Shown here in pieces: positions 6,147 through 57,223 of a stretch of 58,591 nt of DNA. Position 1 is the first letter of the stretch; each line of letters opens with the position of its first letter. Source of the stretch: a virus (Duplodnaviria > Caudoviricetes). Made by a program: the position numbers and the translations under genes. The stretch covers positions 1-58,591 of the IMG/VR virus record IMGVR_UViG_3300045999_002215; one strand, written 5' to 3'. The notes below the pieces were generated by a model. That model ran no database searches. It worked only from the letters and a program-made list of their open reading frames with translations, and was not told where the DNA came from.

Positions 6147-6890
6147 ATGAGCAAGTCGTTAAAGTATGTGTCCGACTTCCAGTTCCCGACAGAATGCGGG
6201 TTTACTGGTTCGTCCGGCAAAACTATGGTCAAAGGTTATGCTCGCGGCGGTCACGCCGACGTAGCCCAAGACAAGGCAATGATGAAACAAATGGCTAAAG
6301 CCGACGTCACAAAAGACAAGGCTATGGTCAAAGCTGCCGTGCAAAAGCATGAAAAGAGCCTGCACAAGGGTGAGCCTCTCACCAAGATGGCGATGGGCGG
6401 TTATGCTGAAGGCGGCGCTAAGAAGGCGATGGCTAACGAGCGCGCAGAGATGTCCCGCATCAAGCAGGAAACCCGCAGCGAGCGTAAAGACGCTGGCGAG
6501 GAAATGTCGCGGGTCCGTAAGGAAATGCGCTACGACGAGGCCAAGCTGAAAAGCGACCGTCCGATGCGCAAGCAGTATCCGACAAACCGTAGCGAACCGA
6601 TGATCAAAGCAATGGCTGGCGGTATGATCAAAGACCGCAGCAAGCTGGGCATTGAGGGTAACAAGAACCCCGGTGAGACCAAAATGCACACCGCACCAGA
6701 CCTCCCCGGCCCGAAGACCATGATGAAGCGCGGCGGTATGACCCCGAAGCAAGAAGCCAAGGTCGGCAAGGTCATGGGCGAGTACAAGGCCGGTGAACTG
6801 CACTCGGGTAGCAAGTCTGGCCCGATGGTGAAGAGCCGTAAGCAGGCTGTCGCTATCGCGATGTCTGAGGCGGGCAAGAAAAGAAAGTGA
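6147..6890 (+). CDS. Basic Lys/Met-rich protein with C-terminal DUF6496-like domain and xGG repeats
   Basis: 'KVGKVMGEYKAGELHSG..VKSRKQAVAIAMSEAG'; motifs YARGG, MAMGG, YAEGG, MKRGG and variant AMAGG. Confidence 0.7.
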   Translation: MSKSLKYVSDFQFPTECGFTGSSGKTMVKGYARGGHADVAQDKAMMKQMAKADVTKDKAMVKAAVQKHEKSLHKGEPLTKMAMGGYAEGGAKKAMANERAEMSRIKQETRSERKDAGEEMSRVRKEMRYDEAKLKSDRPMRKQYPTNRSEPMIKAMAGGMIKDRSKLGIEGNKNPGETKMHTAPDLPGPKTMMKRGGMTPKQEAKVGKVMGEYKAGELHSGSKSGPMVKSRKQAVAIAMSEAGKKRK

Positions 6891-6891
6891 C

Positions 6892-6920
6892 TTGCTCTTT
6901 CATCGGTGTTGAGCTATAAT
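6892..6920 (+). promoter_or_regulatory. Sigma70-like promoter TTGCTC-N17-TATAAT
   Basis: Consensus -10, 17-bp spacer, intergenic. Confidence 0.75.
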
Positions 6921-10765: not shown

Positions 10766-11659
10766 ATGGCGCAGACCGGCTACACCCCGATTCAGCTGTA
10801 CCGCAGTACTACTGCTAGTGCAGTTCCGAGCGCGTCAGACCTGAACCCCGGCGAACTCGCTATCAACATTAATGACGCTGACATGGCGCTTTACGCAGAA
10901 AATGCGTCAGGTGCCGTTAAGCGCATTATGAACAACCCGGCGGGTCTCAAGTATCCGACCGCCGACGGCACCAGCGGTCAGGTCATGACGACTGACGGCG
11001 CGGGTAACGTCACATTCGGCTCGACCACCGCGCAAGCGGACGCTGTCAAAGTCACGACCTCTTCGACCTCAAGTGCGTTCAAGGTTCCGTTTGCGAACAC
11101 TACGGCTTCGACCACGGGTTACTACGGGCTGCTGCAAGATGACGCGGCCACGTTCACCTATAACCCGTCTACGAACACTGTGACCGCCGGGACGTTCGTG
11201 GGCGCGCTGACGGGCAACGCTTCAACGGCGATTAGCGCGAGCACCGCGACCACCCTTACGGGTCTCACGGCCACCATCACTGAGCTGAACTACAGCAGCG
11301 GTGTAACCTCTGCAATCCAGACGCAGCTCAACGCTAAGGTGGATGAGACCTCTTCGACGGGCTCTGCGGCTATTCCTGCGGGTACTCAAGCTCAGCGCGA
11401 TGGCTCTCCCGCTGCAGGTTACTTCCGCTTTAATAGCGACATCGCCAAGTTCGAGGGTTACAACGGCACAAGCTGGGGTAGCGTTGGTGGCGGTGCGACG
11501 GGCGGCGGCTCTGACGAAATCTTCATTGAGAACGGTCAGACGGTCACCACGAACTATTCAATCCCGTCAAGCAAAAACGCTATGTCAACCGGGCCGATCA
11601 CGATCAACTCGGGCGTTACGGTCACTGTCCCCTCTGGCTCTAACTGGGTGGTTTTGTAA
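10766..11659 (+). CDS. Tail fibre-associated protein
   Basis: 'GELAIN..D' N-terminal fibre motif; 'GYFRFN..KFEGYNG..WG' and 'NAMSTGPITI' modules. Confidence 0.7.
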   Translation: MAQTGYTPIQLYRSTTASAVPSASDLNPGELAININDADMALYAENASGAVKRIMNNPAGLKYPTADGTSGQVMTTDGAGNVTFGSTTAQADAVKVTTSSTSSAFKVPFANTTASTTGYYGLLQDDAATFTYNPSTNTVTAGTFVGALTGNASTAISASTATTLTGLTATITELNYSSGVTSAIQTQLNAKVDETSSTGSAAIPAGTQAQRDGSPAAGYFRFNSDIAKFEGYNGTSWGSVGGGATGGGSDEIFIENGQTVTTNYSIPSSKNAMSTGPITINSGVTVTVPSGSNWVVL

Positions 11660-11660
11660 G

Positions 11661-12836
11661 ATGTCGATCACAATTAGCGGAAGCACTGGAGTCGCGGGCA
11701 ACAACGGCAGTGCTGGCACTCCCGCGTATCAGGGCGAGGACACCAACACGGGGGTCTTTTTCCCGGCTGCGGATACCGTGGCTGTGGCCACGGCTGGCAC
11801 TGAGCGGGTCACGGTTACGTCTGTTGGTCGGGTTGGGGTTGGTACGAACAGCCCAAACCAGTTGGTTCATGTGTCTGGCGGTAATATCCGGGTGAGTAGC
11901 GCATCCGAAAACACCATCATTACCAACGGGGGCAATTTCACGACAGGTGCGGTCACGGACTCAGCCATTCTGTACGGCAGCGGGAGCCTTCTGTTTGGCA
12001 ACGGCTCCACCGAACGCATGCGCCTTGATGCGTCTGGCAACTTGGGGATCGGGACGACGACCCCGTCCGCAAAGCTGGAACTCCAAGGCAATAGCACGGT
12101 CGCAAGCATCAAGTATTTAGCGGATGGCGGGTCTGCGCTTCTTTCTTGGAAGAACTCCTCCGGCACAACACTTTGGTCGATTGGCGGCGGTATTGCGGCA
12201 GCTCAAGATGAGCTGGCCTTCGTCCGTCAAAGCACTCCGGTTGCTAGGTTCGACTCTAGCGGAAATTTTTTGGTGAATGCGACCAGTAATACCGAAAACG
12301 CGAAGATGTTCGTTCGCTTTAGCGGTGACGGCGTTAACGGCATGGCTCTAAGCAACACCGCGTCTTCTGGCGCACCGACCTTTTTTGCGTTTAATGATAC
12401 CGCGCAAGCCCTGAACAACACGCAGGTTGTCGCTAGATATACAGACACTAGCGCAACGCGCTGGGAGCTACGTAAAAACGGCGGTCTTGCTAACTATAGC
12501 GCCAATAACGTCAACCTGTCAGACGAGCGGGTAAAGACCGATGTTACCCCGCTGGGTTCCTACTGGGACAAGATCAAAGCGCTGCAAGTCGTCACCTACA
12601 AATATCTCGACCAGAGCCATGGTGACGATAACATCGGCGTGATTGCCCAGCAGGTCGAAAGCGTAGCACCTGAACTCGTCAGCAATGACGGCTTCGGTGA
12701 AACCCCGGTAGATGGTGTGCCGCTCAAGTCGATTTACGAGGCCGACCTGCACTATGCCGCCCTCAAGGCGCTGCAAGAGGCTATGGCCCGCATTGAAGAA
12801 CTCACCGCCCGCGTAGCAACCTTGGAGGCCAAATAA
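11661..12836 (+). CDS. Tail fibre 1 with C-terminal intramolecular chaperone (peptidase S74-like)
   Basis: 'ERMRLDASGNLGIGT' repeats; 'SDERVK...IGVIAQQV...LKALQE'. ATG 11661 is the more likely start than 11343. Confidence 0.85.
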   Translation: MSITISGSTGVAGNNGSAGTPAYQGEDTNTGVFFPAADTVAVATAGTERVTVTSVGRVGVGTNSPNQLVHVSGGNIRVSSASENTIITNGGNFTTGAVTDSAILYGSGSLLFGNGSTERMRLDASGNLGIGTTTPSAKLELQGNSTVASIKYLADGGSALLSWKNSSGTTLWSIGGGIAAAQDELAFVRQSTPVARFDSSGNFLVNATSNTENAKMFVRFSGDGVNGMALSNTASSGAPTFFAFNDTAQALNNTQVVARYTDTSATRWELRKNGGLANYSANNVNLSDERVKTDVTPLGSYWDKIKALQVVTYKYLDQSHGDDNIGVIAQQVESVAPELVSNDGFGETPVDGVPLKSIYEADLHYAALKALQEAMARIEELTARVATLEAK

Positions 12837-13915
12837 TGTCGCTCATCAGACTGCAAGGCAACGCCTCTGGCACTGGTGCGTTTACCATCGCTGCCCCCAA
12901 CGGCAACACGGACAGGACGCTTACGCTGCCGGATGCTACGGGGACGGTGAACGTCTCTGGCTTAGCTAACGAGGTTCCTGCGGGTAGCGCGGGCGCTCCG
13001 GCCATCTATCCGACAGGCGACAGCAACACGGGCATCTTCTTCCCTGCGGCTGATACCATCGCCTTCTCTGAGGGTGGCGTCGAGAGCATGCGGATCGATT
13101 CTGCAGGCAACGTGGGGATTGGGACGACAAGTCCGAGCAACAGGCTGCATGTTCAGAACGAAATCACGACTGCCTACAGCTCAGCTAACACGCTAGCCGC
13201 CGCCCCTCTCGCGTATTTCTACAACACGAACGGCTCAGTTGGTGGCGCTGGAACGATCCGTATTGATGGCGGCACATCCGGTGGGAACGGTGCGGTTACG
13301 ATTTCCGCTCTTCAAACGGCAAGCGGCTCTTCTGCGTTAACCTTCGGGACACGCAGCGGAGGCTCCGATGTCGCAGAACGCGCCCGCATCGACTCCAGCG
13401 GGGTGCTAACTGTAGGGCAAACTAGCAGTATAAACGTGTTCAGCGGCTCGGCAGATGGTTGTTCTATTGAAGGCGATGGTGCTATTTCACTGTCGCGAAA
13501 CCAGAACGCTTCTCTCTATATTAGACGTAGAGGCAACAACGGGGCTGTGGCTGCATTTCTTCGGGACACCACTCAAGTTGGTCGAATTGATGTAACCACC
13601 ACCGCCACGGCCTACGTCACATCCTCCGACTACCGCCTGAAAGAGAACGTCGCGCCGATGCAAAACGCATTGGACACTGTGGCGCAGCTTAACCCTGTGA
13701 CCTACACTTGGAAGGCTGACGGATCGGCGGGCCAAGGCTTCATCGCCCACGAACTGCAAGCTGTTGTCCCCGACTGCGTGACGGGTGAGAAAGACGCTGT
13801 GGATGAGACGGGCAACCCGCAGTATCAGGGTGTCGATACCAGCTTCTTGGTGGCAACGCTCGTCAAAGCCATTCAGGAACTCACCGCCCGCGTAGCAGAG
13901 TTGGAGGCCAACTAA
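12836..13915 (+). CDS. Tail fibre 2 with S74-like chaperone domain
   Basis: 'SSDYRLKEN...GFIAHELQ...LVKAIQEL'. Confidence 0.85.
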   Translation: MSLIRLQGNASGTGAFTIAAPNGNTDRTLTLPDATGTVNVSGLANEVPAGSAGAPAIYPTGDSNTGIFFPAADTIAFSEGGVESMRIDSAGNVGIGTTSPSNRLHVQNEITTAYSSANTLAAAPLAYFYNTNGSVGGAGTIRIDGGTSGGNGAVTISALQTASGSSALTFGTRSGGSDVAERARIDSSGVLTVGQTSSINVFSGSADGCSIEGDGAISLSRNQNASLYIRRRGNNGAVAAFLRDTTQVGRIDVTTTATAYVTSSDYRLKENVAPMQNALDTVAQLNPVTYTWKADGSAGQGFIAHELQAVVPDCVTGEKDAVDETGNPQYQGVDTSFLVATLVKAIQELTARVAELEAN

Positions 13916-19566: not shown

Positions 19567-20199
19567 ATGGCATACAGCATGACCTATGACAGCTTGTTAA
19601 CGGACGTGCGCCGTTATCTTGAGCGTGGTTTCACCGCCGAAAGCGACCAGATCGTCTATGAGCAGCTGCCCCGTTTGATCACGCTGGGCGAGCGCCGGAT
19701 TGCGCGCGAGCTGAAGATCCAAGGCTTCATCCGTGCCGTGCAGACTCCGCTGCAGGCGGGCGTGGCGGTTTACCTCAAACCCGACAGGTGGCGCGACACC
19801 ATCAGCATGACGGTCAACGGTTCGCCAATCTATGCCCGCTCATATGAATACTGCCGTAGCTACTGGCCTGATGAAGCCGAAACTGCTGCGCCGCAGTTCT
19901 ATGCTGACTACGACTATCAGCACTGGCTTATCACGCCAACGCCTGCAACCGTTCAGACGCTTGAGATTCTCTACTACGAACAGCCTCGCTTCTTGGACGA
20001 CGAGTTTCAAACAAACTGGCTCACTGAATACGCGCCTGACCTGCTGCTTTACGCAGCGCTGCTCGAAGCGGCCCCGTTCCTCAAGAGCGACGAGCGCATT
20101 CAGATCTGGCAAGGAATGTACGACCGTTCCGCTCAGGCTCTCAACGGAGAAGACTTGAAGCGCATCATGGATCGTTCAGCTAACAGGAGTGAAGCGTAA
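19567..20199 (+). CDS. Putative head-tail adaptor protein
   Basis: 'MTYDSL', 'PRLITLGERRIAREL', 'TNWLTEYAPDLLLYAALLEA.PFLK.D'. Confidence 0.6.
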   Translation: MAYSMTYDSLLTDVRRYLERGFTAESDQIVYEQLPRLITLGERRIARELKIQGFIRAVQTPLQAGVAVYLKPDRWRDTISMTVNGSPIYARSYEYCRSYWPDEAETAAPQFYADYDYQHWLITPTPATVQTLEILYYEQPRFLDDEFQTNWLTEYAPDLLLYAALLEAAPFLKSDERIQIWQGMYDRSAQALNGEDLKRIMDRSANRSEA

Positions 20200-23242: not shown

Positions 23243-23472
23243 GCATTCAAGTTACTCTCCCTACGGGCATGGCGCTGCGGGACTGGGCTGACCAGATCGC
23301 CCTTGACCTCGACCCTTACGGAGCGTTCGGTCGCCTTGACGACGAGACGCAGTGGCAGAACTGGGCAATGCAGTTCTTGAACAACATGAGCCTGAAAGAG
23401 AACTTTCCGGTTCCCTACAACTTTACCGACTGGCGTGAATGGGCTGAACGATTCGTCCAGACGATAGCGTAA
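23239..23472 (+). CDS. Small Trp-rich virion protein
   Basis: ATGA-coupled 77-aa ORF. Confidence 0.6.
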   Translation: MSIQVTLPTGMALRDWADQIALDLDPYGAFGRLDDETQWQNWAMQFLNNMSLKENFPVPYNFTDWREWAERFVQTIA

Positions 23473-23485
23473 CGGAGCACGACAC

Positions 23486-25168
23486 ATGGAAATGCAGCAA
23501 CTGATTCAACAGGCGGCTCAAGACCCGCGCTTTCAGCAGGCTCTGCAGGTTGCTCAGGCTGAGCTGTCGGATGCATCGCCAGAGCAAGTTGAAGAATTGA
23601 TTCAGCTCTTTGAGCTGATGCTTCAGCGCCCAGAAGAGTATCAAGCGATCCTTGAAGCAGCTATTCTTGACGACATGGTCGAACCTGACGACATGCCGGC
23701 AGAGTATGACGCCACGGTCATCGCCTCGGCACTGGTCGTGCTCTACAAACTGCGTGAGGGTGGCGGCCAAGCCACTCAGATGTTTGCTCGGGGCGGTCTT
23801 GCGGGCATGCGGACGCTGGCCCGCCAGGGTCGCATGGGCGACACGATGATGGCTCACATCTCGCCAGAAGAAGCGGCGATGTTGAAGGCGCGGGGCGGCG
23901 CGGGCACAATCAACCCGAACACCGGATACCCGCAGTACTTCTCTCTGAAGAAGCTGTTCAAAGCTGTCCTGCCGATCGCCCTCAACTTCATCGCTCCGGG
24001 TCTGGGTTCAGCCATTGGCGGCGCTGTCGGCCTGAGCGGGGCGGCGGCTACGGCTTTTGGGGGAGCGGTCATCGGCGGGGCGTCATCGGCGCTCACCGGA
24101 GGCAACGCGCTGCAGGGCGCTCTCATGGGCGGCTTGGGCGGCGGCTTGGGCAACGTGGTTGGCGGCGCGGCCAACAAAATGCTCGGGATGAACTTGGGCC
24201 AAGGCGCTCAGGCTATTCTGGGTAGCGGGCTTGTTGGCGGGGTGGCTGGCGCGGCCACGGGCCAGGGCTTCTTAAAAGGCGTGGGACAAGGGGTGCTGGG
24301 CGGGGCGGTCGGACAGCTCACCGGCGGCATGTCTGGCCCGACTGCGTTCCAGCAGGGCGTTGGCGCTGCGGGCAAGACCTTCGGCCAAGCTCTTACGGCA
24401 GGTTACGACCCCAAGAGCGCATTGACGGCTGGCGCGCTTTCAGGACTCGCCACCGGCATCTCGTACAAACCCTCTAATGCGGCGGTAGAAGGACTCAAGA
24501 CTGGGCAGCAGCCTGCGGCAGAAACGCAACCTGCCGCTGCGGGCCAACCAGCAGCCGATGCAAAACCCGGCTTCTTGGAGAATATTTTTGGCGCTGGCGG
24601 TGGCGGCTCGTCTTCAATAGGCACTCTTGGGAAGCTCGCCATGGCGGGTTCGGCGCTGTCTGGGCTGGTTTCTGCCCCGGCGGCGGTTCAGCAGGCTGCG
24701 TCAACGCTCTCGCCGGAGCAGCAAGAGTATTTCAACCGTCCGAGCATCACTTGGGATTGGAACAAGCTGCAGAATGACGCGAGCGCATCCGGCATGAGCC
24801 TGAGTGACTATATGGCGCGTAACTGGAACAATATCGCGACCGGGCAGTATAACGCGGCGGCTCCGGCGGCTAACACAACCGCTCCGCCAGCAATGGCGAA
24901 CGGCGGTGCTCTGAGCGCAGTTGCCCGGTTTGCTCGCGGAGCCGGTACGGGCCGGTCAGATGAGATTGACGCCAAGCTCTCAGACGGCGAGTACGTTATA
25001 GACGCTGAGACCGTCGCGATGCTGGGCGACGGTTCTAGCAAGGCAGGCGCTGAGCACCTTGACCAAATGCGCAAACAAATCAGATCTCATAAAGGCAAGG
25101 CTCTGGCTAAAGGTAAATTCAGCCCGAACGCCAAGTCGCCGATGTCCTACATTAAAGGAGCCGCATGA
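23486..25168 (+). CDS. Putative ejection/pilot protein 1
   Basis: Gly-zipper hydrophobic segments; 'GTGRSDEIDAKLSDGEYVIDA' motif of tape-measure/ejection proteins. Confidence 0.65.
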   Translation: MEMQQLIQQAAQDPRFQQALQVAQAELSDASPEQVEELIQLFELMLQRPEEYQAILEAAILDDMVEPDDMPAEYDATVIASALVVLYKLREGGGQATQMFARGGLAGMRTLARQGRMGDTMMAHISPEEAAMLKARGGAGTINPNTGYPQYFSLKKLFKAVLPIALNFIAPGLGSAIGGAVGLSGAAATAFGGAVIGGASSALTGGNALQGALMGGLGGGLGNVVGGAANKMLGMNLGQGAQAILGSGLVGGVAGAATGQGFLKGVGQGVLGGAVGQLTGGMSGPTAFQQGVGAAGKTFGQALTAGYDPKSALTAGALSGLATGISYKPSNAAVEGLKTGQQPAAETQPAAAGQPAADAKPGFLENIFGAGGGGSSSIGTLGKLAMAGSALSGLVSAPAAVQQAASTLSPEQQEYFNRPSITWDWNKLQNDASASGMSLSDYMARNWNNIATGQYNAAAPAANTTAPPAMANGGALSAVARFARGAGTGRSDEIDAKLSDGEYVIDAETVAMLGDGSSKAGAEHLDQMRKQIRSHKGKALAKGKFSPNAKSPMSYIKGAA

Positions 25169-26403
25169 TGAGCCTTTTCCAAGGTAAGCCGCAAACGGCG
25201 ACATCTTACGCCACGTCTTCTTCGGAGACCCCGAAGTGGATGCAAGACGCTATCTACAACCAGATTCAGGTAGCGCAGAACATCGCTAACACGCCGTACC
25301 AGCCTTACAACCAGCCCACGGTTGCGGGGCTTTCCCCTCTGCAGCAGCAGGCTTACGCCAACGTCGTTGCTAACCAAGGCGCTTGGTCTCCAGCGATGCA
25401 GAAAGCGCAGCTCGGTATAGCGGACCTCGGCGGCAAAGGTACTGCTGACCAACTACAGCAACAGCAGAACCAGTATTTGCAGCCGAACTTGGCAAGCCAA
25501 GGATTGAACGCGGGACAGCAATTGTTCGGACAAGCGGGCCAGACAACCGCTCAAGCCATGTCTGAGCGCGCTCTGCAAGCCGCAAACCCTTACCTGCAGG
25601 CCGCTGGCCAGACCTCGGCCAGTCAGGTTGGCCAGTACATGTCGCCCTACCAAACGGGCGTTATGGACGTGATTGCTAAGCAAGGCGCGCGCAACCTCAC
25701 CGAAAACATCCTTCCGGGCGTTTCAGACGCCTTTATCAAAGCTGGTCAGTTTGGCTCTAGCCGTATGGGTGAGATGGGCTCGCGCGCGTTGCGTGACACC
25801 CAAGAGGCTATCTTGGCTCAGCAGTCTCAGGCGGCGCAGCAGGGCTACACGCAGGCGCTCGACGCCGCGCAGGCCGACTTGGCTCGGCAAGGTCAGTTGG
25901 CGGGCACGGTCGGCAGCATCAGTGGCGCAGACCTTTCCCGCATCCTGCAGGGCGGTTCGCAGTATGGCCAACTGGGCCAGATGCAGACGCAGGCTGGTCA
26001 GCAGCAACAGCAGTTCGGTCTCAATGCGGCACAGGCTGCTCAGGCGGCTCAGGCTGACGATTATCGTCGCCAGCTGAGCGCGCTGTCTCAAACGGCAGCA
26101 ATGGCTCAGCAGGAGCAGGGCATGCGTGCAGCAGATGTTGCTGCGCTTGAGACTGCCGGAACGGCTCAGCAGACTCAACTGCAGCGCCAACTTGACGATC
26201 AGCGAGCGCGGTTTCTCGAGGCGCAGCTTTATCCGAAACAGCAGATGGACTGGCTCAGCACGCAAATTCGCGGAATGGCGCCAATCACACCGCAGATACA
26301 AAATCAGTCCTCTACGACCACGGGTGCGACTTACGGGCCATCGCCGCTATCACAGCTGGCAACCGGCTTGTATACGTACAAAGGTCTGCAGGAAATGGGC
26401 TAA
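25165..26403 (+). CDS. Putative ejection protein 2
   Basis: Gln/Ala-rich helical protein with 'YMSPYQ' and 'AGQFGSSR' motifs. Confidence 0.65.
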   Translation: MMSLFQGKPQTATSYATSSSETPKWMQDAIYNQIQVAQNIANTPYQPYNQPTVAGLSPLQQQAYANVVANQGAWSPAMQKAQLGIADLGGKGTADQLQQQQNQYLQPNLASQGLNAGQQLFGQAGQTTAQAMSERALQAANPYLQAAGQTSASQVGQYMSPYQTGVMDVIAKQGARNLTENILPGVSDAFIKAGQFGSSRMGEMGSRALRDTQEAILAQQSQAAQQGYTQALDAAQADLARQGQLAGTVGSISGADLSRILQGGSQYGQLGQMQTQAGQQQQQFGLNAAQAAQAAQADDYRRQLSALSQTAAMAQQEQGMRAADVAALETAGTAQQTQLQRQLDDQRARFLEAQLYPKQQMDWLSTQIRGMAPITPQIQNQSSTTTGATYGPSPLSQLATGLYTYKGLQEMG

Positions 26404-26412
26404 GGAGCGGCT

Positions 26413-29031
26413 ATGGGACACGAACTCAATAAGCTTATGCAACGGTTTGGGGTTTCTACTCCGAGCGTGGCTAACCCCTACGGGAACTCGCAGCCGCAAA
26501 AAACTGTGGTTGCGCCCGCGTTGGCGACGATTGCCAACCAGCCGCACATGTTGGCATATATCAACGAGGATGAGCGCCGTCTGCTGAAAGACTTGGGCGG
26601 CGCAGATATCCCCGGCCCTGCGGGCATTCGTGCGTTTCCTCCGGCGGGCGCTGGCGGGGGAGGCACCAAGGGCGGGCAGACGGGAAGCTCTTCAAGCAAA
26701 GGCGCTAGCAAGGGCGCTGGAACGCCCGGTGGGGGCGGCGGAACTGGTGGCCCCGGAAACGTGGGCGGTGGTGGCGCTGCCGCAAACAAGCCGTCTCCTT
26801 CGGCGGGCGGCAGCAGTGGCGGTTCTGCCGCAAACAAACCCTCTCCTGCGGCAAACAAACCCTCTCCTGCTGCGAACAAGCCGTCTCCTGCGGCGGGCGG
26901 TAGCAGTGGTGGCTCCGCTGCTGCACAGGCCGCTGCAGCCGCAAAAGCCGCAGCTGACAAAGCCGCAGCTGATAAGGCCGCAGCTGCAAAAGCCGCAGCA
27001 GAGCGAGCGGTGCAAGAGAAAATCGCTGCCGCAGAAAGAGCCGCAGCTGCAGAAAAAGCCGCAGCCGAACGCGCTGCAGCAGAGCGAGCGATGCGAGCTC
27101 AAATTGCTGCTGCCGAGCGGGCCGCAGTTATCTCCGGAGGCGGCGGCTCCACGTCGTTGGCCGGGGCTGGCGGTGAGCTACCGAGCATGGTGAGCATCGC
27201 AACTCCTGCTGGCATCCAGATGGTGTCCCCTACTTCTTCTGCCGCGCAAATTGCAGCCGCAAATCCTAACCTGTCTATCACTTCCGCCCCTGCCATGGCG
27301 GCTGTTCAGCCAGTCGCGGCTTCGCCTTCGGCTCCAGCTGCGCCTGTTCGCTCTGAGGACATGCCCGCCGAGCGTAAAGGGATCCTTGGCGGATACATTA
27401 GCCTGGCTGACATGTTTGACGGCGGGGGTCCGGGGAAATCTGGGCCTACTTTCGAGGGCGCTTTGTCTGGGATTTCAAACACCCTTGGCATGAAACCTTC
27501 TGACGGTACTCCGGGCGGCGCTCTGCAAGCTTCGATGGGTAATGACCGAGATGGGCCTGACCGCGCAGTTTCACCTCTGACGCCGGTAGAACCTGAGGAG
27601 CCCGTGGTTCCTGCCGAAGAAGTTCTTCCGGTTATGCCTGCTTATGTTCCCCCTACCCCGTTTCTGATGCCCAACGCCCCCACTTACGACCAGGCGCAAT
27701 TCAGCGCGATCAGGGCCAACGTCCCGAGCTTCACGACGTTCTCTCCTGGGCAAAACGCTGCGGTCGTACCTCCGGCATCTATGGACCTGCAAGAGGCTTT
27801 GGCACGCTACGGAATCACCGGGACGCAGTCATTTGCTCAAGGCGGGGCGGTGAAAGGTTATCGGCGAGGCGGGCCTCCCGAAGCCACCTACGGCGGCGCT
27901 GGCGATGACGTGATGATGGGCGGCTCCGAAGAAGACACGCTGCCTCCCGTTGCCGAGGATCCGCAAGACCCGCTAATGGCCATGTATGAGCGTTACGCTC
28001 AGAAGCCCGTTGACTACAGCGGGCAAATCGCAGCCGCGACCGAGCGCAGAGACGCAGAGCAGAAAGCGTTTGAAAAGCTGCTGCTCGGGCAGCTGGATGC
28101 GCAAGACAGTGCGCCGCAGTCGAAGGCTGAGATGTATTTCCGGTTGGCAGCAGCCTTTGGCGCTCCAACGCAGACCGGAAACTTCTCTGAGAACCTGGCC
28201 TTGGTCGGAAGCACGGTGGCAGACCAGCTGTCTGAGAAAGCCAAACGCGAGCGTGAAGCCCGCGATGCTAGACTGGGCGTCCAGACCGAACTGCAGAAAA
28301 TGCGGATGGAGGCGGCTGGCGGAGAGCTGGAGACGTTGCGGGGCCTGCAGGAAGGCGAGACGCAGTACGGTCGCGAGATGGCCAAAGATATGCTTGATAA
28401 GTACATCACCTCGGGCAAGCCGCAGTCTGAGGCAGGCAAGATCGCAGTGGACATGGGCCTCAAGCCCGGTACGCCTGAGTATAACGAAAAGGTCGCCGAG
28501 ATAACGGAGCTGAAGATCCAGCGCGAGATGGCCGCCATTGAAGCATCGCTTGCGTCGACTCAGGCCACTATAGATCGCGGTAACCAATTGAGTTCAACCG
28601 AGATTAAGCTTCGGGCTGAGACCGAAGACAGACTCGCCGGTGTTGAGCGCGCGTTGAACGATGTGGCCGAGGCGTATCGTTTGAATCCGAACAGCTACGC
28701 AGGTAGTTGGTTGGATAGGGGTGCTCGCTTCCTTTATGAAGGCGCAGGCTCAGACGATCCGAAAATTGTCAACACGCGCCGTATTGACAACCTCCTCGGT
28801 TCGCAGGCTTTGGAATCTCTCAAAGCGGTCTTTGGGGGAGCGCCGACAGAAGGCGAACGCGCGATCTTGCTTGATCTTCAGGGTATCGGGGCCAAGTCTT
28901 TGGAAGAGCGCGCTGAAATCATGTTGCGTGCTTATGAGGTGCTGCAAGATCGTCAAGCTCGTGACACCAAGCGGCTAGAAGATATTTTGAGCGGCTCATA
29001 TCGAAACGCTCAACCTATTGATGGAGAATAA
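26413..29031 (+). CDS. Putative ejection protein 3 with low-complexity repeats
   Basis: 872 aa; AANKPSP and AAAE[RK] repeats; helical C-terminal half. Confidence 0.6.
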   Translation: MGHELNKLMQRFGVSTPSVANPYGNSQPQKTVVAPALATIANQPHMLAYINEDERRLLKDLGGADIPGPAGIRAFPPAGAGGGGTKGGQTGSSSSKGASKGAGTPGGGGGTGGPGNVGGGGAAANKPSPSAGGSSGGSAANKPSPAANKPSPAANKPSPAAGGSSGGSAAAQAAAAAKAAADKAAADKAAAAKAAAERAVQEKIAAAERAAAAEKAAAERAAAERAMRAQIAAAERAAVISGGGGSTSLAGAGGELPSMVSIATPAGIQMVSPTSSAAQIAAANPNLSITSAPAMAAVQPVAASPSAPAAPVRSEDMPAERKGILGGYISLADMFDGGGPGKSGPTFEGALSGISNTLGMKPSDGTPGGALQASMGNDRDGPDRAVSPLTPVEPEEPVVPAEEVLPVMPAYVPPTPFLMPNAPTYDQAQFSAIRANVPSFTTFSPGQNAAVVPPASMDLQEALARYGITGTQSFAQGGAVKGYRRGGPPEATYGGAGDDVMMGGSEEDTLPPVAEDPQDPLMAMYERYAQKPVDYSGQIAAATERRDAEQKAFEKLLLGQLDAQDSAPQSKAEMYFRLAAAFGAPTQTGNFSENLALVGSTVADQLSEKAKREREARDARLGVQTELQKMRMEAAGGELETLRGLQEGETQYGREMAKDMLDKYITSGKPQSEAGKIAVDMGLKPGTPEYNEKVAEITELKIQREMAAIEASLASTQATIDRGNQLSSTEIKLRAETEDRLAGVERALNDVAEAYRLNPNSYAGSWLDRGARFLYEGAGSDDPKIVNTRRIDNLLGSQALESLKAVFGGAPTEGERAILLDLQGIGAKSLEERAEIMLRAYEVLQDRQARDTKRLEDILSGSYRNAQPIDGE
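26777..27120 (+). repeat. Coding tandem repeats (AANKPSP x4; AAADK/AAAER)
   Basis: 21-bp and 15-bp degenerate units inside the CDS. Confidence 0.8.
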
Positions 29032-29034
29032 ATA

Positions 29035-31131
29035 ATGGCGAGCGATGCAGCAAACTTTACACGCGCCTTGCTCGGCCAAGGCCTCCTTATGGGTTGGGGA
29101 GACGAAGCCGAGGCCTGGCTGCGGTCAAAGATCGGCGAGAAAACTTATGAAGACGAGCTGGCAGACATCAACCGTGAGTATGGTGAGTTCGCAAAGCGCC
29201 GACCCATCGCCTCGCTGGCAACTGAGTTCGCCGGTGGCGCTGTGCCCACCGTCTTGGCTCTGACAGCCGCGCCGTTCACGGGCGGGGCCACTGCCCCCGC
29301 TGCCGCTGCCGCCGGTGCTAGGGCGACCGGGGTGCTCGCTCGCTTGGCGAACAACCCTGTGGTGCGCGGCGCGGTGACCGGGGCCACCACCGGCGCTGTC
29401 TCTGGCGCTGGTGCTGCTCAGCCCGGAGAGCGCGGCGAGGGAGCACTTACAGGTGCGCAGATCGGCGGGGTGCTCGGTGCTGCCGCACCGCTCGTCATCC
29501 GTGGCGGTGGCGCAGGCTACGAGTGGCTCAGGGACCGCGTGGCACCCTCTGCAGATGTTGTCATGCAGAACGCGACCCGCCGGATCAACCGCGCGCTCTC
29601 TGAGGCTCGAGAGGGCCGAGGCATGACCCCGGCAGACGCCGAAGTGATGATGATTGAAGATCGTCTTCGCGGCATTCCGTCCACCTTTGCCAACGTCGAC
29701 CCGGCACTGGTTGACTTGGCAGAGACTGCTGCCCAGCGTAGCGGCGCGAGCGCCCGGATTGTTGAGGGTACTCTCGGCAGGCAGACCGCCGGTGCCCGTG
29801 AGCGTGTCTACGGTCGCGCCAAGTCTGAACTGGGCGGCGGTAATTATTATGACGACGAAGCTCGCATGGTAGAAGACCTGCGCAATAAAGCGTCCACGCT
29901 CTACGACGACGCCTACGCTTTTGGCAGCGTCATGGACCCGCGCATCATGTCAGCTCTTAAGAACACCAAATTCAAGGGCTTCTACGACAAGGCCCGTGAG
30001 ATTGCTGAAACTGAAAAGATGGCCGCGAAACTGCGCGGAGAAGATACGTCGAAGTTTGAGCTTGAAGAGCTTTATAAATTCGACAAAGAGGGTAACATCG
30101 TCGGCGTCAACGTCCCGGACGTCCGCACGTTGGACTATATCAAGCGCGGGATTGACGCCACGATTGACAGTGGTTTCAGAGGCCAAGGCATGAGCACCGC
30201 CGAGGCCAACGCGCTCAAAGATCTCCGCAAGCAATTTGTCAATGCTCTTGACGAGGCAACCGTTGATCCGCAGACCGGCAGATCGGCCTACAAAACTGCG
30301 CGCAAGGTTTACGCAGGTGACATGGAGGTCTTGGACGCCATGCGCATGGGTCGTGACAAATTCAACAGTATGGACAGCGAAGAAATCGCCAAAGCGTTTG
30401 ATGAGATGGGCCAAGCTGAGCGCGATGCTTTCCAGACCGGCGCGATCCGCAGCATTTACGACGTCGTGATGAAGTCTCCCAACAACATCAACGCGGCTCA
30501 GAAGCTGATCGGTTCTCCTGAGTATTCGGCCAAACTGAAAGAGATTTTTGACTCACCTGCGCAGTTTGACCTGTTCAAGGCGGCTCTTGAGCGGGAAGCC
30601 CAACTGTTCGCGCAGTCCAACCGCATCTTGGGGGGATCAGCTACTGCTCGCCGCACTGCGGCACGGGAGGCATTTGAAGAAGGGTCGCCGGTCGGTGGCG
30701 TTGTGGCAGACACGCTTACAACCGGATTCGGCAACTCCATGGCCAACCTCGTTGCGCGTATCGCACGCAGCGCGACCATGACTGACGACACGGCGAAGGA
30801 AGTCTCACGCATGCTGATGTCCAGCGATCCAACCGAAGTCGCGGCAGCTGTGAAGCTGCTGGAGGACTACGGCGCGCGGGCCGTTAAGAGCGAGCAAAAG
30901 CTCGGCGCGCGTGAAGCCGGGGCCATCGTTGGCGCCACCACAGCAGTTCCTCCGCCCCCGGCAACAGAAGAATCTCCGAACATCAAAGCTCGTATTCAGG
31001 CTGATCGTGAAACGGCGGGAACGCAGGGTGGGCCTAGCATTGAAGAAGCTGTCCGCGAGCGCAAGAAGAAGCGGGAAGAGGGTCTCAACATAACTATTGA
31101 CAGCCCTGCTGACGGCATACCTCTTCCGTAA
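29035..31131 (+). CDS. Putative ejection protein 4
   Basis: 'QGLLMGWGDEAEA' start, Gly/Ala hydrophobic stretch, 'LDYIKRGID'; last gene of the + arm. Confidence 0.6.
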   Translation: MASDAANFTRALLGQGLLMGWGDEAEAWLRSKIGEKTYEDELADINREYGEFAKRRPIASLATEFAGGAVPTVLALTAAPFTGGATAPAAAAAGARATGVLARLANNPVVRGAVTGATTGAVSGAGAAQPGERGEGALTGAQIGGVLGAAAPLVIRGGGAGYEWLRDRVAPSADVVMQNATRRINRALSEAREGRGMTPADAEVMMIEDRLRGIPSTFANVDPALVDLAETAAQRSGASARIVEGTLGRQTAGARERVYGRAKSELGGGNYYDDEARMVEDLRNKASTLYDDAYAFGSVMDPRIMSALKNTKFKGFYDKAREIAETEKMAAKLRGEDTSKFELEELYKFDKEGNIVGVNVPDVRTLDYIKRGIDATIDSGFRGQGMSTAEANALKDLRKQFVNALDEATVDPQTGRSAYKTARKVYAGDMEVLDAMRMGRDKFNSMDSEEIAKAFDEMGQAERDAFQTGAIRSIYDVVMKSPNNINAAQKLIGSPEYSAKLKEIFDSPAQFDLFKAALEREAQLFAQSNRILGGSATARRTAAREAFEEGSPVGGVVADTLTTGFGNSMANLVARIARSATMTDDTAKEVSRMLMSSDPTEVAAAVKLLEDYGARAVKSEQKLGAREAGAIVGATTAVPPPPATEESPNIKARIQADRETAGTQGGPSIEEAVRERKKKREEGLNITIDSPADGIPLP

Positions 31132-33937: not shown

Positions 33938-33965
33938 TTTGTTCTCCTTTCACGGGTTGAGGCGG

Positions 33966-38007: not shown

Positions 38008-38009
38008 AC

Positions 38010-52940: not shown

Positions 52941-54508
52941 CCGCTCTGCCCAGCCCCGAGGTGATGTTGGACATGATCCGCAACGAGAAGGAGCGCAGAG
53001 CCGCTTCTGCCTCGTTGTATGAGTTCGTGCGGCAAGCGTGGCATGTGGTGGAGCCTGGCGTCCCGTTCATCCCCTCGTGGCACATCCGGGAGATCTGTGA
53101 GCACCTTGAAGCTGTGAGCGCCGGTGAGATACACCGCCTGCTCGTTAACATCCCGCCTCGCCACTCCAAGTCGACCATCGTCAGCGTCATGTGGCCGATG
53201 TGGGAGTGGCTGACAGACCCTGCTCAGAAGTTTCTGGCCGCGTCCTACTCAGGCAACCTGTCCATTCGTGACAACTTGAAAGCCCGACGCCTCATTCAAT
53301 CGCCCTGGTATCAAGAGCGTTGGGGGCAGATGTTCAAGCTGGCAGGCGACCAGAACGCCAAGCAGCGATTCGAGAACGACAAGACCGGCTACCGGCTCGC
53401 GACGTCGGTGGGTGGTACGGCAACGGGTGAAGGCGGCTCGCGCCTCATCCTGGACGACCCTCACGGCGCGCAGGACGCGCAGTCAGAGGCGATGCGCGAG
53501 TCTGCCCTTGAGTGGTTCGATCAAGTCTGGTCAACCCGACTCAACAACCCGAAGACCGACGCCATGGTCACGGTCATGCAGCGTCTGCACGAGCGGGACA
53601 TTAGCGGGCACATCATCGAGGACATCGGCGGCTGGGAGCACGTCTGCATCCCCGCCGAGTGGGACGGTAAGCGCCGCCATACCGTGCTGGGTCCGTACGA
53701 CCCGCGCAAGAAGATCGGTGAGCTGATTTGCCCCGAGCGGTTCGGTGACAAAGAGATCACCGCTCTCAAGCAGCTGCTCGGCGAGTACGGCACAGCAGGC
53801 CAGCTGCAGCAGGACCCCACCCCGACTGGCGGCGGTATTCTCAAGACCGTTCACTTCCAGCTGTGGCCTGCTGACAAGGGTCTGCCTCAGTTTGAATACA
53901 TCCTCCAGTCCTACGACTGCGCGTTCACCGAGAAGACGACCGGCGACCCCACTGCCTGCTCGGTATGGGCCATCTTCACGCACAACGGCGAGCGCAACGC
54001 GATGCTCATCGACGCGTGGGACGAGCACCTGTCCTACCCAGACCTGCGCACTCGCGCCATCAAGGAGTGGGGCACGGAGTACGGAGGCACCACAGTCAAA
54101 GACGGCATCCGCCGTCCGCGTCGTCCGGACCGCATCCTGGTCGAAGCCAAGGCCAGCGGACAATCGCTGCTGCAAGATTTGCGCTTGGCGAAAGTGCCTG
54201 CCGTCGGCTATAACCCTGGCATGGCCGACAAGGTGAGCCGCGCACACCAAGCCGCGCCGACCTTGGAGCTGGGTCTGTTGTGGGTGCCAGAGAGTGGGAA
54301 GAACCGGGGACAAGCGGTGAGCTGGGCGCAGCCGTTCATCAAGCAGCTGACCAAGTTCCCGGTAGCAGAGCATGACGACTACGTAGACACGTTCACTCAG
54401 GCAATCCTGTTCCTGAAGAACGACGGATGGTTTGAACTGCCGCAGGCTCGCGACCGTGATGAGCCCAAGCAGTATAAGCGCGAGAGGGTGAACCCATATG
54501 CCGTCTAA
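52937..54508 (+). CDS. terL: Terminase large subunit
   Basis: 'NIPPRHSKS', Walker B 'LILDDPH', 'MQRLH', nuclease 'SYDCA', 'HDDYVD'. Confidence 0.93.
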   Translation: MTALPSPEVMLDMIRNEKERRAASASLYEFVRQAWHVVEPGVPFIPSWHIREICEHLEAVSAGEIHRLLVNIPPRHSKSTIVSVMWPMWEWLTDPAQKFLAASYSGNLSIRDNLKARRLIQSPWYQERWGQMFKLAGDQNAKQRFENDKTGYRLATSVGGTATGEGGSRLILDDPHGAQDAQSEAMRESALEWFDQVWSTRLNNPKTDAMVTVMQRLHERDISGHIIEDIGGWEHVCIPAEWDGKRRHTVLGPYDPRKKIGELICPERFGDKEITALKQLLGEYGTAGQLQQDPTPTGGGILKTVHFQLWPADKGLPQFEYILQSYDCAFTEKTTGDPTACSVWAIFTHNGERNAMLIDAWDEHLSYPDLRTRAIKEWGTEYGGTTVKDGIRRPRRPDRILVEAKASGQSLLQDLRLAKVPAVGYNPGMADKVSRAHQAAPTLELGLLWVPESGKNRGQAVSWAQPFIKQLTKFPVAEHDDYVDTFTQAILFLKNDGWFELPQARDRDEPKQYKRERVNPYAV

Positions 54509-54665
54509 AGAGAAGCCCGTCTGGGACAAGAAGCGTCCGAAGTCTCTTGGCGAGAGCAAACCGCTCTCCGACGCCAAGAAGGCCACCGCCAAGAGCATGG
54601 CTGAGAAGGCCGGTCGCCCTTACCCCAACCTCGTTGACAACATGCGAGCCGCGAGGAAGAAATGA
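54498..54665 (+). CDS. Small basic protein (55 aa)
   Basis: MPSKEKPVWDKKRPK...AGRPYPNLVDNMRAARKK; overlaps both neighbours; not in the ORF track. Confidence 0.65.
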   Translation: MPSKEKPVWDKKRPKSLGESKPLSDAKKATAKSMAEKAGRPYPNLVDNMRAARKK

Positions 54666-57223
54666 TCGACAAGGACAGCCTGCCCCTTGACAAGCCGCGA
54701 CGCACACCCGACCACCCGACCAAGTCGCACGTGGTTAAGACGCGCGTCGACGGCAAAGAGAAGATCATTCGCTTCGGGGAGCAGGGTGCCAGCACGGCAG
54801 GTAAGCCCAAGGCTGGCGAGTCCGACCGCATGAAGCAGAAGCGCGCCTCGTTCAAGGCTCGCCACGCAAAGAACATCGCCAAGGGTAAGAGCAGCCCTGC
54901 CTACTGGGCCAACAAGGTCAAGTGGAAGACTGGGGGCGCGGTGGGGCTTGAGGCACTGGACGAGAAGTACGAGGGCATCAAGAAGCCCGACTTCGCGCTG
55001 CTTGACTCATTCAAAGATCTCATCAGGACGCTGCAGAGCAAAGCTGCAGACGCTGGTGAACAAGAGTTTGACGCGGTGCGCGCGCTAGGGCGTAGCGGTG
55101 CCGGGAGCAGCTTGGAAGATCTTTACGAGACTTACACTGGGGAGACCGCGCCACACGCAGCAAGAGCTGAGGCAAAGGGCAACGTCAACCCTGACCGCGC
55201 CAAGTCGGCTAAGATGGTGTTTGACTCTTTCAAGAACGCTGGGTTCTCCGACGCTCAAGCTCGTGCGCTTACGGCTGAGATCAACCGCGAGAACGTCTTC
55301 AACCCGAAGTACCTGTACGGCACGCACACCGACGCCGCAAACCGCGCAACCAACGTGGGTATGCTGAGCTGGCAGGGTGGCCGGGCCAATCGCCTGCTCT
55401 CGTTCATGGCTGACCGAGGGTTGGTTGACGCTGCCGGGGGTATTCTGCCGGGGCAGGACGCCTTGAACGCGCAGGCTGAGTACCTGCGTTGGGAGATGGA
55501 GAACGATCCGAGCTACGCCAAGACCCGTGAGACGTTCTTGAGCAACCCTGACATCGACTCGGCCACAGCTCACGACATCTTAGGCAAGAACTTCATCCGC
55601 TGGCGCATTGATGACCCCAAGTATCGGGGTAGCGGCTTTGAGCGCATCGGCGAAGGCTATGACATCCTCAACATGGCTCAAGGCTACAAAGAGGGTGGCA
55701 AGGTCAAGAAGGATGAGCTGGCCGAGGCTGAGCGTCTGCGCGACCTTCAGCTGATGGCTGAGGAGCAGAACCCCAACGCTGTCGCACCGCGCAAGCCGAG
55801 CATTGCCGACCTGCCCGGAGGCATCTCCGAGCGTCTGGCGCTGATCAACAAGTACCTTAACCCGGTTGAAGCGATCGGCGAATCTATGCGCGCTGGGTCT
55901 CGTTTGACGTCTGCGGATGCGTCTGGGTACGACCGCTTGGCTGCCTTGGGCGACATGCTCTCGGGCGTCGCTGGTGTTGCTGGCCCTGCAGCCATTGCCA
56001 AGCGTGTGGGCGCACCAGCTGCCACGGCTCTGATGGAAAGCCTGCTCGGGGCATCGCCCACCAGCGAGGCTGTGGCCGACATGGCTCGCAAGTATGCCGT
56101 CGATGAGTATGGCGGCGTGCCTGTCGGAAGAGGTGCGGGTCTTGATGTATCACGACGTGACGCATCAAACATTTTTGGTGAAGGCTCTGAGCGGGTCAGA
56201 TACACCGATCCGCGAAGCGGCGGCACCATTGAGGTTGTCGTGCGACCAGATGGCAGCGCATCGGTCCTTGAGTTGGAGGTGCCAGAGGCATCTCGCGGCC
56301 AAGGCATAGGCCAGGCGCTGCAAGAGCGCGTGATGCAAGACTTCCCGGTAATGGGCGGTCAGGTGTCGTCCAAAGCAGCAGCAACGACAGCATATCGCCT
56401 TGGGCGCAGGCCGCCGGGCAAGCCAGACGCGACCCTTGAAGAAGTATTCGCAGACATCGATGACATGTCATCCGTCAACATGGTTTCTCCAAGAATGCAG
56501 GAGCGACTTGCGCCATCAGCGCCTGCTGCCAACGCAGCACCATTCGGTAAAGACTGGTCGGATGTTTACCACTGGTCCAGATCGCCTGATGACTTCTCGG
56601 AGTTTGACTTGAGCCAGTCGAAGTCGGCCATGAGCCAGCTCGGCCCGCATGTCGGGACGCCGCAAGCTGCCGAGGCACGCTACATGGGCTTTGCAAAGCC
56701 TGAGGGCGTGCCGCCAGCCATGGGCTTCACGCTCCCGATGAAGGCTGACTTGTCCAAGCCGTTCATGAATCCCGCAACTGGAAAACCTTGGACAGAGATG
56801 GAACTAGAGATGTTTATCTCTGACGTGGCGGATGAGAACGGTGTTGAGCGTCGCCTCATCGCGCCGATCATGCGAGAGCGTCTCGCAAAAGAGGGCTACA
56901 CCTCTATACCGTACTTGAACGATGTTGAGGACGCGGGGAGTGTCAGCAACATCATGCTGGCTGATCGTCCGGCAGGCAGCGACGCCGTCTTGCGCTCGCG
57001 CTTTGCCAAGTTTGACCCGGCGATGCGCGCCTCAAAAAACATCAGCGCAGGCGCGGCTGTCGGGGCTGCGGGCCTTGGCGCATCTCAGTACGATCCGGAC
57101 GCAATCGAAGCCCGCGTCAGCAAGGCTGGCAAAAATGAGTTTGCGGCTGGCGGCGCTGTCAAATACGATCCCGCTGCAGTAGACAGCATCATCAACAAAC
57201 TTCGCGAGGTCAATCGTGGCTGA
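54662..57223 (+). CDS. Multidomain polyvalent protein: basic N-domain, tail-lysozyme-like, GNAT-like, ART-like
   Basis: 'GFSDAQARALTAEINRENVFNP..GMLSWQG.R..AQAEYL..EM'; 'LEVPEASRGQGIGQAL'; 'VYH..FSEFD..L.KEGY..I.Y.N..E..LRSRFAKFDP'. Confidence 0.6.
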   Translation: MIDKDSLPLDKPRRTPDHPTKSHVVKTRVDGKEKIIRFGEQGASTAGKPKAGESDRMKQKRASFKARHAKNIAKGKSSPAYWANKVKWKTGGAVGLEALDEKYEGIKKPDFALLDSFKDLIRTLQSKAADAGEQEFDAVRALGRSGAGSSLEDLYETYTGETAPHAARAEAKGNVNPDRAKSAKMVFDSFKNAGFSDAQARALTAEINRENVFNPKYLYGTHTDAANRATNVGMLSWQGGRANRLLSFMADRGLVDAAGGILPGQDALNAQAEYLRWEMENDPSYAKTRETFLSNPDIDSATAHDILGKNFIRWRIDDPKYRGSGFERIGEGYDILNMAQGYKEGGKVKKDELAEAERLRDLQLMAEEQNPNAVAPRKPSIADLPGGISERLALINKYLNPVEAIGESMRAGSRLTSADASGYDRLAALGDMLSGVAGVAGPAAIAKRVGAPAATALMESLLGASPTSEAVADMARKYAVDEYGGVPVGRGAGLDVSRRDASNIFGEGSERVRYTDPRSGGTIEVVVRPDGSASVLELEVPEASRGQGIGQALQERVMQDFPVMGGQVSSKAAATTAYRLGRRPPGKPDATLEEVFADIDDMSSVNMVSPRMQERLAPSAPAANAAPFGKDWSDVYHWSRSPDDFSEFDLSQSKSAMSQLGPHVGTPQAAEARYMGFAKPEGVPPAMGFTLPMKADLSKPFMNPATGKPWTEMELEMFISDVADENGVERRLIAPIMRERLAKEGYTSIPYLNDVEDAGSVSNIMLADRPAGSDAVLRSRFAKFDPAMRASKNISAGAAVGAAGLGASQYDPDAIEARVSKAGKNEFAAGGAVKYDPAAVDSIINKLREVNRG

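Follow-up and report, generated by a model that had tools for sequence, protein, structure and literature searches.

Targeting and junction peptides of virion proteins are known in kind from several systems. The capsid targeting sequence of T4 and the cargo-loading peptides of encapsulins are short, conserved terminal peptides on otherwise unrelated cargo, and the T4 peptide is removed by a protease, so that loading and cutting can combine. The adenovirus protease, pS273R of African swine fever virus and the C39 peptidases use Gly-Gly sites with a preceding hydrophobic residue at virion precursor junctions. In the passages of Iyer et al. (2017; PMC5512222) that bear on the question, polyvalent proteins of phages and conjugative elements are described with embedded peptidase domains, zincin-like MPTase among others. 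For the tape-measure protein gpH of phage lambda, the relevant passages of a structural paper state that the position and the catalyst of its cut are not known and that residues about 690-817 are unresolved (PMC12617516). Here we describe a five-residue motif, [YFWM]-[AKR]-x-G-G, in four proteins of a tailed-phage genome (IMG/VR record IMGVR_UViG_3300045999_002215), whose 58,591 bases, hereafter the window, are the entire assembly on a single contig. The motif is a real, conserved element: it recurs in relatives, lies at module boundaries and in sequence predicted to be disordered, is under selection at the protein level and is present in tape-measure proteins. Tentatively, and with somewhat less than even confidence, we read it as a processing or connector site between independently evolving modules.

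Motif copies and their conservation

Translation of the four open reading frames (ORFs) yielded all 11 motifs that the earlier note had listed, together with the degenerate variant AMAGG:

6237-6251, plus strand: YARGG, residues 31-35 of the 6147-6890 protein
6387-6401, plus strand: MAMGG, residues 81-85 of the 6147-6890 protein
6402-6416, plus strand: YAEGG, residues 86-90 of the 6147-6890 protein
6609-6623, plus strand: AMAGG, degenerate copy, residues 155-159 of the 6147-6890 protein
6723-6737, plus strand: MKRGG, residues 193-197 of the 6147-6890 protein
23783-23797, plus strand: FARGG, residues 100-104 of the 23486-25168 protein
24893-24907, plus strand: MANGG, residues 470-474 of the 23486-25168 protein
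27832-27846, plus strand: FAQGG, residues 474-478 of the 26413-29031 protein
27859-27873, plus strand: YRRGG, residues 483-487 of the 26413-29031 protein
54923-54937, plus strand: WKTGG, residues 88-92 of the 54662-57223 protein
55685-55699, plus strand: YKEGG, residues 342-346 of the 54662-57223 protein
57140-57154, plus strand: FAAGG, residues 827-831 of the 54662-57223 protein

The gene set of 83 ORFs (18,735 amino acids) held 12 copies of the motif, 11 of them in the four named proteins; the twelfth lay in a doubtful ORF of 53 amino acids (33862-34023, minus strand). Full shuffles gave an expectation of 3.1 copies (P = 0.0004), and shuffles with every Gly held in place gave 4.0 (P = 0.002). 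For the four proteins taken together, 0.9 (full) or 1.3 (Gly-fixed) copies were expected and none of 5000 shuffles reached 11, a figure that is inflated because these proteins were selected after the fact.

We collected relatives as 327 loci from four scans of viral contigs, called their ORFs and assigned them to the window proteins by BLASTP; non-redundant sequences were then compared with Gly-fixed shuffles. The observed copies far exceeded expectation in each carrier family (110 versus 10.4 in the 6147 family, 114 versus 21.0 in the 23486 family, 80 versus 13.7 in the 26413 family and 120 versus 9.5 in the 54662 family). The remaining families, pooled to 1585 proteins, showed 34 copies against 76 expected, which we do not read as depletion because control patterns vary there from 0.18-fold to 2.05-fold. 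In the four carrier families the forward register was enriched 7.7-fold, as opposed to 0.73-fold for the reversed pattern, 0.98-fold and 0.87-fold for patterns one residue shorter and longer, and 0.72-fold for an aliphatic first position. The strict motif was found in 96% of 67 relatives of the 23486 protein, in 71% of 80 relatives of the 26413 protein, in 41 of 41 non-redundant relatives of the 6147 protein (2.7 copies each) and in 34 of 44 relatives of the 54662 protein, the other 10 being stand-alone copies of its first domain. Enrichment over Gly-matched shuffles and conservation in homologues, two of the points that the earlier note had named as decisive, were both observed. The motif was found in none of the relatives of the portal (0/77), capsid (0/96), scaffold-like (0/106), 3051-3581 (0/97) and large terminase (0/39) proteins. 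Two further proteins of the ejection-like block, starting at 25165 and 29035, had it in 0/70 and 1/81 relatives, respectively.

The motif could be a functionless artefact of Gly-rich, low-complexity composition and shared ancestry. The four carriers are indeed rich in Gly (9-16%), the pattern was set after the fact, and the counts in relatives are not independent events. However, Gly-fixed shuffles never attained the observed counts, the enrichment was limited to the exact register and to the aromatic/Met class, neighbouring proteins of similar GG density lacked the motif, and the motif recurred at differing positions beside unrelated modules. Positions left free in the pattern were strongly biased as well, and we consider this explanation very improbable.

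These biases were taken from 515 distinct instances chosen by [YFWM]xxGG alone. Ala followed the aromatic residue (+1) in 60%, Val stood two places past GG (+6) in 44% overall and in 77% of the polyvalent family, and G or K preceded the motif (-1) in 50%, giving the consensus (G/K)-[YFMW]-A-x-G-G-x-V. The statement in the earlier note that many copies are followed by x-V/L was true for five of the 11 copies in the window. The codons at the conserved A, G, G and V varied synonymously, indicating that selection acts on the protein. A recombination joint at the DNA level was ruled out by the same variation.

The distribution is not entirely clean. The replication proteins in the window's gene set lacked the motif, as had been noticed before, but among relatives a single conserved match to the pattern was present in 42% of 26 Cas4-like nucleases and in 60% of 20 DUF3310 proteins, the window's own copies of both being without one. 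These matches weigh against a simple picture of where the motif occurs. The T7 and P22 virion and ejection proteins lacked the motif, which is thus not universal among podoviruses.

Placement within the carrier proteins

The four carriers are encoded as follows:

6147-6890, plus strand: lysine-rich protein of 247 amino acids with a C-terminal DUF6496, head module
23486..25168, plus strand: tape-measure-like ejection protein of 560 amino acids, first in a four-gene block (phrog_6090, E 5.8e-7)
26413..29031, plus strand: second ejection-block carrier, 872 amino acids, with a low-complexity N-terminal half
54662..57223, plus strand: polyvalent protein of 853 amino acids, between the large terminase and the portal

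All four, i.e. the tape-measure-like, the second ejection-block, the basic head-module and the polyvalent protein, are predicted to exit the particle with the DNA. The label "capsid-internal", under which the earlier note had grouped them, is suggested by gene order and weak family matches.

The polyvalent protein showed the clearest arrangement. Its modules run from an 88-residue basic domain (phrog_7595) through WKTGG, a lysozyme-like domain (PF18013, phrog_6922), YKEGG and further modules to FAAGG and a C-terminal unit, FAAGGAVKYDPAAVDSIINKLREVNRG. The earlier observation that the motif sits at domain junctions of this protein was borne out: exactly at residue 88, at 342 behind the lysozyme-like domain, and at 827, where the C-terminal unit begins. 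At least two unrelated domains are thus joined in one polypeptide of the virion module, and relatives carry ART-PolyVal, PcfJ, SLT and CHAP domains. MuF is a usual companion domain of polyvalent proteins; Pfam (E<=0.001) revealed neither MuF nor an embedded peptidase in the window protein, and a sequence search against solved structures returned nothing at E<=1. Across the family, proteins had 2 to 12 copies of the motif, beside unrelated modules.

The 88-residue domain also exists as a separate protein of about 90 amino acids in roseophages and cyanophages, ending exactly in ...KVKW. Among 73 copies in 80 loci, 66 were stand-alone with this ending, and in the seven fused copies the W was directly followed by [ASN][ED]GGx[VL]. 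Internal copies of the domain read ..GYAEGG|SVDKDS...KVKW|AEGG|EV; the window protein starts MIDKDS, so that its Met stands at the residue after GG. These boundaries indicate that A-x-G-G is a four-residue connector. The module before it has the aromatic residue as its last conserved position, and the module after it has the Val as its first. In one related locus (L190) the domain and the rest of the protein were encoded by adjacent separate genes, and the connector was gone.

The last copy of the motif in the polyvalent family opens the unit [YF]AxGGxV(x)YDPxx[VI]DxIxNQ[FI].., which occurs once or twice at the extreme C-terminus. The ORF that immediately precedes the portal gene was represented by 59 distinct sequences; 46 of them had the motif within their final 45 residues and 44 had the YD unit, and in most polyvalent tails the last motif was 23-31 residues from the C-terminus. 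When 1.84 billion proteins were searched with a profile of the unit, 426 representatives matched at E<=0.001, 128 of them at E<=1e-10. In 136 of the best 150, with lengths of 29-2333 amino acids, the unit began no more than 35 residues from the C-terminus. A Pfam scan of 53 of these 150, picked by length, found varied effector domains in 22 (PcfJ in 11, ART-PolyVal in 7, and SLT, CHAP and phage lysozyme in 2 each) and nothing in 31.

Such a distribution is also what would be expected if the motif, alone or with the YDP-helix, were an uncleaved docking or loading element recognised by a putative partner that all carriers share, either in the particle during assembly or in the conduit for DNA delivery. 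The carriers would then be packaged, held and ejected together, and having several copies per protein, 2.7 in the 6147 family and as many as 12 in the polyvalent family, would add avidity. That portal, capsid, scaffold-like and terminase proteins lack the motif agrees with this possibility, which we regard as somewhat less likely than a processing site. The stand-alone 88-residue domain drops the motif (66/73), which would be odd for the loading tag of that module. A complex prediction of a full-length portal from a related locus (L174) with the 64-residue C-terminal tail scored 0.00 without controls, and it speaks neither for nor against binding. In addition, tape-measure proteins carry the motif although they belong to the tail. 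A single receptor in the capsid would therefore not fit, and a loading code for the capsid only, as first proposed, is too narrow. The two other proteins of the ejection-like block and the ejection proteins of T7 and P22 are without the motif, which likewise counts against a docking element.

In the tape-measure-like 23486 protein, an N-terminal helical part is followed by FARGG, a glycine-zipper hydrophobic middle (residues ~160-300) and MANGG, which opens a conserved C-terminal module with ..LSDGEYVIDAETVAMLG... The first copy reads G[FY]ARGGL across the family, past the N-terminal helical part. The C-terminal module has the consensus [MK]AxGGALSAVARFAxGxGSGRxDxIxAKLSDGEYV.DAETVA.LGDGS, and the first position of this second site is often K or L instead of an aromatic residue. 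An ESM Atlas search with the protein returned viral clusters only. A second conserved element, GDTMMAHISPEEAAMLKARGGAGTINPNTGYPQYF, lies at ~23837-23935 (residues ~118-150) and is shared with the "tape measure" of DSL-LC04; tblastn matches over the same residues were found in Methylophilales phage Venkman and two uncultured phages.

The 26413 protein carries FAQGG and YRRGG nine residues apart, followed by an all-helical conserved C-terminal domain. Its family often has two or three copies at nine-residue spacing between the variable low-complexity half and the conserved helical domain, as in the tandem repeats of YRKGGQVRAYAEGGAVKGYQDGG, and its short forms begin about 10-15 residues before the motif. 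AlphaFold, run with a 70-sequence alignment, modelled window residues 469-518, which hold both copies, with a predicted local distance difference test (pLDDT) below 50 and without secondary structure, and placed long helices after them. Directly past the motif pair, GGAGDDVMMGGSEEDT at 27889-27942 (residues 493-510) gave a sub-threshold match to the RTX nonapeptide PF00353 (18.6 bits versus a cut-off of 23, E 0.0018), which covers residues past the motif only; the motif itself has no Asp.

The nine-residue period raises the alternative that the motif is purely structural: a small hairpin with a tight turn at Gly-Gly and with an aromatic residue and Val on either side, which in tandem repeats would form a beta-roll-like or sticker segment and would help the chains to oligomerise or to sit at a membrane interface while a trans-envelope channel forms. 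The 9-8-9 residue spacing of successive GG pairs in the window protein, the PF00353 match just downstream and the presence of channel-forming types among the carriers (tape measures, the glycine-zipper ejection protein) are in line with it. The RTX-defining Asp is missing, however, and the AlphaFold monomer has no structure in this region. A structural role also leaves unexplained why the motif stands at boundaries of unrelated modules and is lost when the modules are split, and we consider it unlikely.

Tape measures and a possible role in processing

G-Y-A-x-G-G-x-V-G was present in the C-terminal region of every one of seven diverse tape-measure proteins from siphophages, among them lambda gpH, in agreement with the earlier note that such motifs occur there. 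In six of the seven, including lambda, F[AS]xGGYTG precedes this copy, after a hydrophobic Gly-rich segment; in gpH, the Gly-rich hydrophobic segment is followed by KFHFATGGFTGTGGKYEPAGIVHRGEFVFTKEATSRIGVGNLYRLMRGYATGGYVG. The 23486 protein has the same order, with its glycine-zipper region followed by MANGG at 470, and a G-E-[FY]-V element 10-25 residues past the motif was invariant in 37 relatives. The gpH stretch 745-789 matched 1044 phage records, and a homologue search with gpH 690-853 gave only near-identical E. coli prophage copies among the matches listed. BLASTP of the 23486 C-terminus against the gpH C-terminus found nothing significant. An hhalign comparison of the 23486 and lambda-type alignments paired KLSDGEYVIDAETVAMLG with IVHRGEFVFTKEATSRIG weakly (18 columns, P 0.0056, probability 6.5%). 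Given this weak support, we call the 23486 C-terminus a module shared with tape measures and do not claim membership. GB2A and DSL-LC04 have homologues of the 23486 protein that carry the annotation "tape measure", although the genes for them belong to the same four-gene block and the genomes are podovirus-like. No tail-tube or tape-measure chaperone gene was matched among 50 ORFs by Pfam and PHROGs.

In gpH, the motif lies in the region where the cut is made, and a hypothetical cut at F733|A734 would give computed products of 79.8 and 12.5 kDa. T5 pb2 is cut after R1127 according to the account given of one mass-spectrometry study (PMC10038345), in the context ...FVPR|AEGGMM, directly before A-E-G-G. 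In P22 gp7, 20 residues are removed by host OpdA at ..SYPE|KGGKGG, according to a GenBank record note.

Under the processing reading, the motif would be a short linear connector joining independently evolving modules of proteins that leave the particle with the DNA. At the motif the chains would be cut, or at least hinged, into modules, the scissile bond lying next to the A-x-G-G core and the enzyme coming either from the host or, so far undetected, from the phage. The products would be the same proteins that other phages encode as separate genes, and at the last copy the cargo would be parted from an anchor helix at the C-terminus (YDPxxVDxIxNQ). This reading explains the presence of the connector exactly at fusions and its loss where modules are split, its strict conservation between modules that are otherwise unrelated and its position in predicted disorder, and it ties in with the unexplained cut of tape measures. 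The order of preference at the first position, Y>F>M>W, would suit a protease that cuts after large hydrophobic residues. Processing and docking are also compatible, since the tail helix could serve as an anchor and the motif as a link that is severed afterwards, much as the T4 targeting peptide is removed.

Several observations weigh against processing. The 50 ORFs contained no protease family by Pfam and PHROGs, and the earlier note had likewise been unable to identify a protease. The 3051-3581 protein had a moderate predicted fold (pLDDT 66) with no Foldseek match in the PDB at E<=0.001, and so weak a model cannot exclude a protease. The 2018-2986 protein resembles an acidic scaffold; its two matches among solved structures were both SidE chains (best E 0.1, not significant). 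The T5 site is contested in the passages of a further paper that deal with it, older work having placed it at V1148+-1 and R1127 being a trypsin site too (PMC11937520); the P1 residue at R1127 would be Arg and not aromatic, and both candidate sites fall within the conserved module. Moreover, a cut would free almost nothing at many copies, e.g. those 23-31 residues from the polyvalent C-terminus, the one in GB2A gp065, which ends ..RYMDGGRV, and those 10-15 residues from the N-terminus in the short forms of the 26413 family. Such near-terminal copies suit a docking tag better than a cut site.

In its widest form, the processing reading would make aromatic-A-x-G-G the maturation determinant of tape measures, with gpH converted to gpH* at or next to F733-A734, and the same code would operate in effector polyproteins of aquatic podoviruses that are loaded by a C-terminal anchor, cut probably by a host enzyme and interchangeable between fused and split arrangements. 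We regard this combined proposal as speculative and rather unlikely as a whole. The motif nevertheless offers a concrete candidate site for the lambda gpH cut, whose position and catalyst a 2025 structural paper calls unknown in the passages concerned (PMC12617516), and, via a shared module, it connects the tape measures found in long-tailed phages with the ejection proteins of one group of podoviruses. For polyvalent effector proteins, it also supplies an easy way to recognise module boundaries and a C-terminal tag from the sequence; such a rule would make it easier to work out what abundant aquatic phages inject, and might allow foreign cargo to be packed into phage particles. A literature search outside subscription journals and alignment figures showed no description of the motif in phage proteins among the matches listed, which does not prove novelty. 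The matching passages of the polyvalent-protein paper contained no such connector, with "linker" and "glycine" occurring 0 times (PMC5512222).

Genome setting and comparison with known systems

The window is a complete podovirus-like phage genome. Its ends share ~120 bases (1-120 and 58470-58591), indicating a complete, circularly permuted genome. The nearest cultured relatives are the Caulobacter phages RW, RLK, KcrB and GB2A (portal 58% identical), and more remote ones are roseophages CRP-901/902 and pelagiphages HTVC023P/027P; megablast of 20000-31200 against named phages gave no match. Annotation of 50 ORFs with Pfam and PHROGs gave the following layout:

52317 and 52937 (starts): small and large terminase
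57216..58591, continuing at 3-1247, plus strand: portal, without the motif, crossing the circular junction
1563-2003, plus strand: GroES/Cpn10-like gene (PF00166, E 7e-7)
2018-2986: acidic scaffold-like protein, between the portal and capsid genes
3051-3581, plus strand: protein of 176 amino acids, between the scaffold-like and capsid genes
4220-5134: major capsid protein
11343-15060, plus strand: three tail-fibre paralogues in succession, each with a terminal S74 intramolecular-chaperone domain (PF13884)
after the tail fibres: endolysin
19567-20199: SU10-type adaptor (PF24175), followed by two virion proteins and the ejection-like block
23486-31131: ejection-like block of four large proteins, one matching a PHROG "DNA ejection protein"
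25165..26403, plus strand: ejection-block protein of 412 amino acids, the PHROG "DNA ejection protein" match, without the motif
29035..31131, plus strand: ejection-block protein of 698 amino acids, without the motif
strand opposite to the structural genes: replication and thymidine-hypermodification genes

The arbitrary start of the record splits the portal gene, whose 5' part overlaps the end of the polyvalent gene. The GroES/Cpn10-like gene lies within the head module, with the portal on one side and the scaffold-like gene on the other, and is kept by 103 non-redundant relatives. The 3051-3581 protein matched no family; its 45 sequences have 43 invariant columns, with one nearly invariant Cys and several His. 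Small, strongly basic proteins or modules occur in the packaging and head modules, namely a 55-residue ORF (54498-54665) before the polyvalent gene, the DUF6496 end of the 247-residue protein and the 88-residue N-terminal domain of the polyvalent protein, and they may be DNA-associated internal proteins. At 37000-40499 (minus strand), a thymidylate-synthase-like enzyme, 5-hydroxymethyldeoxyuridine DNA kinase domains (PF18723) and an amino acid:DNA transferase (PF18724) are encoded, with a weaker, sub-threshold match to PF18748; judging from these genes, the DNA of this phage probably contains modified thymidines. In GB2A, the large terminase is annotated as two pieces at 2445-5248 with a DNA methyltransferase gene in between, and neither a polyvalent gene before the portal nor a counterpart of the 247-residue protein is present.

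Compared with the di-glycine protease sites, the motif is off by one in register. The adenain- or C39-type site suggested in the earlier note needs a hydrophobic residue two places before GG, whereas here the aromatic residue or Met stands three residues before it; [YFWM][AKR]GG reached 0.98-fold as opposed to 7.7-fold for the observed register, which does not fit that suggestion, and no cysteine protease was found. With the terminal targeting peptides of T4 and encapsulins, the C-terminal unit shares the trait of a conserved short terminal peptide on diverse cargo. However, the sequence differs, the motif is internal as well as terminal, and its binding to a shell or core is putative. The Tal protein of lactococcal phages (TP901-1/Tuc2009) is likewise a virion protein processed at a glycine-rich junction between structural and catalytic domains, in the passages on TP901-1 of the paper concerned (PMC11409707); its site, NGGGNSGGGD, lacks the aromatic-Ala and Val flanks and is a single site in a single protein family.

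The polyvalent proteins of Iyer et al. (2017) are likewise large proteins of the virion module in which unrelated effector domains (lysozyme, ART-PolyVal, PcfJ, SLT, CHAP) are strung together, and release of domains by proteolysis has been proposed for them; the window protein differs in having no detected embedded peptidase or MuF domain. As to tape measures, the window shows no tail-tube or chaperone genes among the 50 ORFs, it has a podovirus-type adaptor, and three further kinds of protein carry the motif here. The C-terminal region of siphophage tape measures (lambda gpH, processed to gpH* and gpHC, and T5 pb2) nevertheless has the same order as the 23486 protein, i.e. a hydrophobic Gly-rich segment, [FM]AxGG, about 15-25 residues and then h-x-x-G-E-[FY]-V...G, and a second [Y]AxGG follows both in the tape-measure proteins and in GB2A gp065.

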